A stretch of 63,998 nucleotides of DNA, filler included, from Anaeromyces robustus (lineage: Eukaryota): NCBI GenBank assembly GCA_002104895.1. It is 3 parts of 3 records of this genome, joined end to end, with 100 filler letters (N's around TTAATTAATTAA, not from the genome) between each part and the next. Parts side by side here need not be neighbours in the genome. Positions count along the whole stretch, not along the records: positions 24,963 to 49,512 come from MCFG01000601.1; 2 more parts are not named here. The stretch is one strand, 5' to 3'. A model generated the notes under the pieces. That model saw only the letters and a list, made by a program, of their open reading frames with translations, searched no databases and was not told the origin of the DNA. The position numbers were made by a program, and so were the translations under genes. Positions 26,598 to 26,670 of the stretch are shown here, piece by piece. The stretch's first letter is position 1, and each line of letters starts with the position of its first letter.

Positions 26598-26670
26598 GTA
26601 ACCATGGTCTAGTGGTTAGTAACTATGACCATCTGGGCGAACACTCTGGGTTCGACTCACACCTTGTTCC
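26598..26670 (+). promoter_or_regulatory. tRNA-like Pol III A-box/B-box module in the LTR (copies: 31123-31195 +, 26075-26146 -, 38103-38174 -)
   Basis: TGGTCTAGTGG at tRNA position 8 and GTTCGACTC at positions 53-61, inside GTAAC...GTTAC ends in the A copies. Confidence 0.75.

Follow-up and report, generated by a model that had tools for sequence, protein, structure and literature searches.

Helenus is the name given to a set of miniature LTR retrotransposons known from fungi, from animals and from a single plant (Kojima 2024, PMC10886601). Their LTRs are described as containing a tRNA-derived sequence in which boxes A and B are conserved and from which a working tRNA is mostly absent (PMC10886601). 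Together with Cassandra and Ajax they make up the group named TRIMp3 (PMC10886601). The proposed origin of Helenus is insertion of a SINE or a tRNA into an LTR, and some of the fungal families are predicted to encode tRNA-His or tRNA-Thr (PMC10886601). The elements were screened below 1000 bp, with the longest reported example being 1263 bp (PMC10886601). The same account states that 'not a few' LTRs in Repbase contain part of a tRNA, and argues that autonomous partners have to rely on Pol II and should have little LTR sequence in common with TRIMp3 (PMC10886601).

Here we analyze a tRNA-derived module in the LTRs of two much larger elements, termed A and C, from the anaerobic fungus Anaeromyces robustus (assembly GCA_002104895.1). 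The window, meaning the whole stretch of DNA that was analyzed, is 63,998 nucleotides long, filler included, and joins parts of three records that need not be neighbors in the genome; positions 24,963 to 49,512 come from MCFG01000601.1. A preliminary description of this DNA had proposed that the module is an insulator or Pol III promoter carried by a chromovirus upstream of its own TATA box.

Elements A and C are recent, nested insertions

The GC content of the window, in 2-kb steps, is 9-16% between genes and 24-36% over transposons. A nest of retrotransposons three deep occupies approximately 24-44 kb. Element A lies within element C, and C in turn interrupts the RT of a further gypsy element, which is found at 38160-40402 and from 25560 downwards. 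Element A is flanked by the 5-bp target duplication GTTTT (26565-26569 and 31809-31813), and C by GATGA. The two LTRs of A are identical, and those of C are 99.8% identical over 573 aligned positions, leaving aside an extra 50-nt copy in the 3′ LTR; because of this identity within each pair we consider both insertions to be recent. The extra copy lies at 25561-25660, where a 50-nt segment from the U5 end is present twice in tandem, as opposed to once in the C 5′ LTR. In the leader of C, a 46-nt unit is repeated in tandem approximately 3.8 times (37296-37472), after the primer site and before gag. Beside the nest we also noted a copia-type ORF on the minus strand (40783-43911), and just past it a 154-aa ORF, also on the minus strand (24349-24813), with a match to Pfam DUF4258 (E = 2.2e-07) that was unexpected beside retrotransposon remains.

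Pfam analysis of the single C ORF (1390 aa) identified RVT_1 (7.7e-35), rve (3.9e-11), SH3_Tf2-1 (5.5e-18) and Chromo (2.6e-16), with the Chromo domain at residues 1337-1385, the C-terminus of the integrase. A one-ORF polyprotein running from gag to integrase and ending in a chromodomain bears out the earlier assignment of C to the chromoviruses. The insertion of A is five codons before the end of this ORF, and excision of A leaves a C ORF of 1387 aa. A database protein of that length, from a 4693-nt contig, was identical over the whole C query. An RNA-library contig of 4693 nt, with a loose end at 26569, crosses the A insertion point without A, and therefore A-free copies of C exist elsewhere. 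Since the A ORF consists of gag and protease only, A is non-autonomous. We conclude that C is an autonomous, complete single-ORF chromovirus and that A is its gag-protease-only dependant. The two elements are 90% identical in the leader, 89% identical at the 3′ end and 72-79% identical in the coding tracts. The only close relative of the C protein with a name, at 66% identity, was listed in a catalogue of genes from anaerobic gut fungi; 'Transposon Tf2' names appeared among the distant homologues. Sequencing runs that contain this DNA are labelled fungus or feces metagenome, and together with the catalogue match they point to a host that is probably of the Neocallimastigomycota type. The C polyprotein had no relatives among viral contigs, and a search of the ESM Atlas returned generic gypsy clusters only, without useful taxa.

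Table 1. Positions of elements A and C, their LTRs, ORFs, tRNA-derived modules and predicted self-primers in the window.
Feature	Position	Strand	Description
Element A	26570-31808	+	5239 bp
Element C	25561-38202	-	7398 bp; hosts A
Element A 5′ LTR	26570-27283	+	714 bp; TATA box TATAAATA at 26924-26931; transcript predicted to start near 26965
Element A 3′ LTR	31095-31808	+	714/714 identical to A 5′ LTR
Element C 3′ LTR	25561-26174	-	614 bp; extra 50-nt tandem copy at U5 end
Element C 5′ LTR	37639-38202	-	564 bp
Element C polyprotein ORF	31793-35965	-	gag, protease, RT, RNase H, integrase, chromodomain
Element A ORF	28887-30764	+	625 aa; gag and protease only
tRNA-derived module, A 5′ LTR	26598-26670	+	73 nt; U3 positions 29-101
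Module, A 3′ LTR	31123-31195	+	identical to A 5′ LTR module
Module, C 3′ LTR	26075-26146	-	72 nt
Module, C 5′ LTR	38103-38174	-	72 nt
Decayed module	51417-51473	-	within degraded LTR ~50954-51469, 73.7% identical to C LTR
A self-primer 10-mer GTGCTTTTAT	26965-26974	+	41 nt after TATA box; predicted
C self-primer 10-mer GCGATTTTAT	37831-37840	-	38 nt after TATA box; predicted

The module contains two tRNA-derived blocks

The preliminary description placed a unit of 72-73 nt 28 nt inside each LTR of A and C. This unit is present in all four LTRs, and a module search of the window gave four matches with 0-1 mismatch, as compared to none in 100 shuffles. The bases reported to be in tRNA register (T8, A14, G15, G53-T54-T55-C56, A58 and C61) are all found in both versions, as are G10, GG17-18 and A21 (counted from the first G). 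Box A (TGGTCTAGTGG) matches 8 of 9 specified consensus positions and box B (GGTTCGACTCA) 9 of 10, and the two boxes are 44 nt apart from start to start, which is a tRNA-like spacing. The B-box sequence GGTTCGANTC has four exact matches in the window, all within modules, versus 0.05 expected. Among motifs of the Helenus type (PMC10886601), the module matches TRGCY at four of five positions and contains YGG and GGTTC.

We scanned 596 Gb of prokaryotic DNA for both blocks at tRNA spacing, using the pattern TGGTCTAGTGGTTAG-N26-32-GGGTTCGACTC with 26 specified bases. By our own arithmetic approximately 0.002 matches were expected by chance. Seven were found, and every one is a tRNA gene called by ARAGORN (6 Glu, 1 His). 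Parts of both acceptor strands are also common to the module and the seven matched tRNAs, while module positions 23-48 contain nothing recognizable as tRNA in the alignment. Because the block pair retrieved tRNA genes only, these matches indicate that both ends of the module descend from a tRNA gene or the head of a tRNA-derived SINE, and they support the earlier claim of a tRNA-derived unit with near-consensus A and B boxes at tRNA spacing. By sequence, the blocks are D-arm and T-arm blocks of the kind seen in tRNA-Glu.

A free-standing tRNA-derived SINE family was considered but is not supported, as there was no excess of contig depth over the module bin for copies at least 85% alike. Summed contig depth, which is not copy number, was 49,824 in the module bin versus 47,672-57,328 in the neighboring LTR bins. 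A LINE-related or A-rich SINE tail is absent, with the LTR sequence running straight on after the module.

The decayed copy reported near 51418-51470 was located on the minus strand (Table 1). In this copy the A-box positions G9, G10 and T11 are changed and C56 is now T. Relative to the C module (26075-26146), most of its changes add A or T, and G>A and C>T together make up about half of them. Such changes fit a decay of dead copies that is AT-biased or of the deamination type. The degraded LTR that contains it, which belongs to the A/C family, lies between the first tRNA-Trp gene and the tRNA-Cys gene of a group comprising five tRNA-Trp(CCA) genes and one tRNA-Cys(GCA) gene within 12 kb (50081-62210), adjoining a transposon island in the window.

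Downstream of the module, U3 contains three to four tandem-like copies of TTCTGTATTT(T) that are kept in A (26680-26770), in C (25990-26040, minus strand) and in the decayed copy (51300-51360). They may be an enhancer-type repeat. A metagenome scan with the module-independent U3 repeat TTCTGTATTTT-N0-1-ATTTCTGTATTT gave 10 loci, none of them LTR-related; the match was limited to the repeat itself in each case, and none contained a B box. The module pattern had no matches among viral contigs.

The tRNA fold is lost

ARAGORN with default settings called six tRNA genes in the window, none of which is the module. The Rfam tRNA model (RF00005) recovered the six real genes too, but it did not match the module at the gathering score, and relaxing the cutoff to E<=10 gave no hit in a segment of 1001 nt or in one of 91 nt. 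ARAGORN called the module only when thresholds were lowered to 80%, with scores of 81.5-83.2 versus 119-121 for real genes. At this setting there were 45 calls in the window, 35 of which were neither real tRNA genes nor modules. Pairing is 1-2 of 4 in the D stem, 1 of 5 in the anticodon stem and 3 of 5 in the T stem, in agreement with the earlier statement that the anticodon arm has been lost. With its stems mostly unpaired and no call from either program, the module was rejected as a functional tRNA gene.

Of the 7 pairs possible between the acceptor-like ends that had been described, C (GTAACCA/TTGTTAC) forms 6 and A only 5. The module sequence quoted earlier for A in fact ended with the letters of C (TTGTTAC), the A sequence itself being TTGTTCC. 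The proposed refolding of the 5′ half as ATGGTC/GACCAT does appear as a hairpin in the minimum-energy fold. The z-scores of the predicted fold were −2.13 for C alone and −3.58 with flanks, and −1.06 and −0.58, respectively, for A. Fold stability is thus unremarkable and inconsistent between A and C.

Conservation of the module among LTR variants

The module had been described as nearly invariant while the rest of the LTR diverges. Identity between A and C is indeed 70/73 in the module, with 22/22 in the two boxes, as compared to 59/79 at LTR positions 102-180, 53/83 at 181-260, 41/80 at 261-340, 59% in R and 36% in U5. However, the direct flanks are equally well kept. LTR positions 1-28 are identical at 26 of 28 sites, and there are two substitutions in the 71 internal nt that precede the LTR and include the polypurine tract. 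The conserved block thus extends from approximately 70 nt before the LTR to approximately LTR position 125, including about 24 nt past the module. A separate 45-nt island around the TATA box is 95.6% identical. The GC content of the module is 49%, versus 9-22% in its flanks.

We also identified a third LTR variant, represented by one contig in each of three runs. As compared to C it is changed at module positions 11, 29, 37, 42 and 46, four further listed changes fall within the 28-nt leader, and it diverges into unlike sequence 8 nt past the module. None of its listed changes is in box B, and T11>C shifts box A towards the consensus; these contigs have 13-15 counted differences, of which nine were listed by place, so that a box change among the rest is possible. 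In contigs from one DNA run there was no variant at a share of at least 10% in 26216-26704, which is no proof of identity, versus several between 26705 and 27022.

The substitution counts between A and C were 2/72 in the module versus 27/260 in the wider flank (Fisher p = 0.056). When A and the third variant were each compared to C, box positions were changed at 1/44 and non-box module positions at 7/101 (Fisher p = 0.44). Between A and C the boxes were no better conserved than their immediate flanks, which is half of what the preliminary description had said would refute its proposal. Conservation is not special to the boxes, since the same block takes in the polypurine tract, the end of the LTR and some 24 nt past the module. 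We conclude that the module is in the most constrained part of U3, and that a comparison of three live variants is too small to show that the boxes are the cause. Common cis-acting ends, or recombination, can account for the conservation, given the mosaic structure of A and C.

A Pol II promoter and self-priming layout lie downstream

In A the TATA-box sequence TATAAATA is found at LTR position 355, and in C at position 325. Placement of the module in U3, which is approximately 395 nt long, upstream of the TATA box was correct, with the distance being about 295 nt. In Tf1-type self-priming the primer site is complementary to the start of the transcript. The predicted A self-primer GTGCTTTTAT is exactly complementary to ATAAAAGCAC, the 10 nt directly after the 5′ LTR (27284-27293), and the corresponding C sequence GCGATTTTAT is exactly complementary to ATAAAATCGC, the 10 nt directly after its 5′ LTR (37629-37638). 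The 10-mers of A and C differ at two positions, and each difference is compensated on both sides. From this pattern of complementarity A and C look self-primed like Tf1. Since the primer sites of A and C are complementary to their own LTRs and not to a tRNA, a link between the module and priming of reverse transcription was rejected.

The self-priming layout together with the TATA box places the Pol II start near 26965. Sense RNA depth, in raw reads of one run, was 1.5-5 across U3, 5.4 at 26972-27035 and 38-45 in U5 and the leader, rising only from approximately 26972. Because the element RNA is made by Pol II from the TATA box approximately 295 nt downstream, the module is not the genomic promoter.

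The elements were found in many RNA-labelled sequencing runs, and RNA contigs run through U3. Over the module itself, the depth of raw RNA reads in one run was 0 and 2 on the two strands, as compared to 38-45 in the leader, and no clustered read starts or ends were found at the module in this ordinary paired RNA-Seq run, a type of library unsuited to small RNAs. Since such a library would miss a Pol III RNA of about 80-110 nt, the absence of reads does not count against one. A peak of approximately 966 reads at 26140-26203 was rejected as a module transcript; these reads match over only about 36 nt before continuing into unlike sequence and derive from another expressed element. At 26170-26206, approximately 1,850 raw RNA reads likewise match over only about 36 nt (the polypurine tract and the first TGTAA of the LTR), with two changed letters and two indels, and at either end they continue into unlike sequence. 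Their source would appear to be a related element that is highly expressed and that shares this plus-strand primer region but has another LTR start.

The T-runs reported downstream of the module were found in part. C has a T6 at +20, and in A no run within 60 nt is longer than T4. Each of the six real tRNA genes in the window is followed within 20 nt by a run of at least T5. The T-runs say little because this DNA is so AT-rich.

Weighing the explanations

Starting from the observed anatomy, the tRNA origin of the two blocks, the lost cloverleaf and the Pol II/self-priming layout, we tentatively favor, at somewhat less than an even chance, an inherited capture of a tRNA or SINE head in U3 whose B box would serve as an entry site for TFIIIC and possibly as a weak Pol III start. 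The explanation that competes most seriously, although we consider it doubtful, is that a tRNA or SINE-head fragment was captured once and has been kept as a neutral passenger, which would bind nothing that matters, by indispensable cis-acting neighbors and by the youth of the copies. This would account for a module that is no better kept than its neighbors in the conserved block (~70 nt before the LTR to ~LTR 125), for acceptor pairing that already differs between A and C (5/7 versus 6/7) and for the lack of RNA signal at the module in a library unsuited to small RNAs; the recent insertions, with LTR pairs 100% and 99.8% identical, and the 'not a few' Repbase LTRs with a tRNA part (PMC10886601) also fit. 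It accounts less well for a 49%-GC module that keeps both boxes amid flanks of 9-22% GC while positions 23-48 are unlike tRNA, and for retention of the module in three LTR variants that differ downstream. Moreover, the dead copy shows what box decay looks like when unconstrained.

It is rather unlikely that the module is a cis signal of the retrotransposon itself, either a Pol II enhancer or a structured 3′-UTR RNA element, with its tRNA ancestry incidental. The U3 of the 3′ LTR is transcribed, RNA contigs run through U3, and the two conserved U3 islands (positions 1-125 and the 45 nt around the TATA box, 95.6%) follow the usual pattern of a distal element plus core promoter. The non-autonomous A would also be expected to keep what its helper needs, and the leader (90%) and 3′ end (89%) are common to both elements. 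An RNA structure is suggested by the C fold (z = −2.13 alone and −3.58 with flanks), but A does not retain it (z = −1.06 and −0.58) and the cloverleaf stems are broken. Very improbable is a chance or convergent resemblance, in which a GC-rich U3 motif merely resembles tRNA arms. The ARAGORN call at 80% thresholds only, among 35 other calls that are neither genes nor modules, and the failure of the Rfam tRNA model even on 91 nt at E<=10 are what such a resemblance would give. Against it, 26 bases at tRNA spacing matched seven tRNA genes and nothing else in 596 Gb, where ~0.002 matches were expected, and the acceptor-like ends add further matches to those same seven tRNAs. A working tRNA gene carried by the LTR has practically no probability: the boxes and the Helenus families predicted to encode tRNA-His or tRNA-Thr (PMC10886601) would speak for it, whereas the module was uncalled at default thresholds and forms few stem pairs (D 1-2/4, anticodon 1/5, T 3/5).

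According to the captured-head explanation that we favor, a degenerate tRNA-derived segment would have become fixed in the distal U3 of a Tf1-like, self-priming family of chromoviruses. The module no longer encodes a tRNA but has kept, in sequence, the internal Pol III promoter of type 2 (boxes A and B), while the element RNA is made by Pol II from the TATA box approximately 295 nt downstream. The intact B box would bind TFIIIC as a site of the 'extra TFIIIC' type. A short Pol III transcript may also start here and end at the first adequate T-run, which in C would be the T6 at +20. A benefit to the element, for example a boundary against heterochromatin targeted by the chromodomain, is speculation. 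The boldest proposal, that the module at the outer edge of each LTR recruits TFIIIC and shields the Pol II promoter from silent chromatin as a self-carried boundary of the tDNA type, appears improbable.

Implications

Active boxes would make this a case of a Pol III/TFIIIC module in a full-length, Pol II-driven LTR retrotransposon rather than in a miniature parasite, which would be contrary to what is expected for the autonomous partners of TRIMp3 in the account of PMC10886601. Spread of the transposon would then multiply TFIIIC sites and chromatin boundaries in the very AT-rich genomes of anaerobic fungi, in which, as in this window, TE islands lie beside clusters of tRNA genes. Were the boundary proposal true, a heterochromatin-seeking element would bring its own insulator and seed TFIIIC sites, and possibly short Pol III RNAs as well, throughout an early-diverging fungal genome. 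With inactive boxes, the module would be one more tRNA fragment in LTRs and mainly a warning for the annotation of tRNAs and SINEs.

Integration directed by Pol III was also considered, but the three insertions show no pattern and prove nothing. The insertion site of A is 423 bp from the module of the C 3′ LTR, C lies in the RT of another element, and a distance of 0.8-1.5 kb separates the dead LTR from the tRNA genes closest to it.

Comparison with known systems

In a limited full-text literature search, covering titles and the openings of abstracts, we found no autonomous LTR element with tRNA-derived or tRNA-like Pol III boxes. Heterochromatin at a primer site in flies, involving pre-tRNA (PMC13537249), was set aside as a parallel, as that article concerns the primer site and not U3.

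With Tf1 and Tf2 of Schizosaccharomyces pombe, the elements described here share a single gag-pol ORF, a chromodomain integrase and a primer site complementary to the start of the predicted transcript. To our knowledge, no tRNA-derived module is present in Tf1 or Tf2 LTRs. In yeasts, extra-TFIIIC sites and tDNA boundary elements are loci of the host, and both their occupancy by TFIIIC and their barrier activity have been measured. Like them, the module has a B-box sequence without a functional tRNA product, which could recruit TFIIIC and act on chromatin; unlike them, it is known only as a sequence match inside a mobile element.

Foamy viruses are, like C, autonomous retroelements made by Pol II, and they have a Pol III unit in the LTR (PMC3993851, PMC7693620). 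Their units produce expressed hairpin miRNA precursors (PMC3993851, PMC7693620), whereas no downstream hairpin product or transcript was seen for A and C. Cassandra TRIMs resemble A and C in having a fragment of a small-RNA gene with an internal Pol III promoter inside their LTRs (PMC10886601). They differ in that the promoter is derived from 5S rRNA (type 1) and in being miniature, non-coding plant elements with reported Pol III transcripts (PMC10886601).

Helenus is the closest known case and, from its description in PMC10886601, a closer precedent than Cassandra. Like Helenus, A and C have a tRNA-derived segment with boxes A and B in both LTRs, and their GTTTT and GATGA duplications have the 5-bp length found in the fungal and plant Helenus families. 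In contrast, Helenus elements are non-coding and 311-1263 bp long, while A encodes gag and protease within 5239 bp and C a full polyprotein within 7398 bp. The fungal Helenus families come from Pucciniales and Agaricomycetes and look dependent on Copia elements, whereas C is a chromovirus. Their primer site is complementary to a tRNA, and that of A and C to their own LTR, as in self-priming. Finally, the tRNA part of Helenus is thought to be its sole promoter, used by Pol III, whereas A and C have a TATA/Pol II promoter downstream of theirs.
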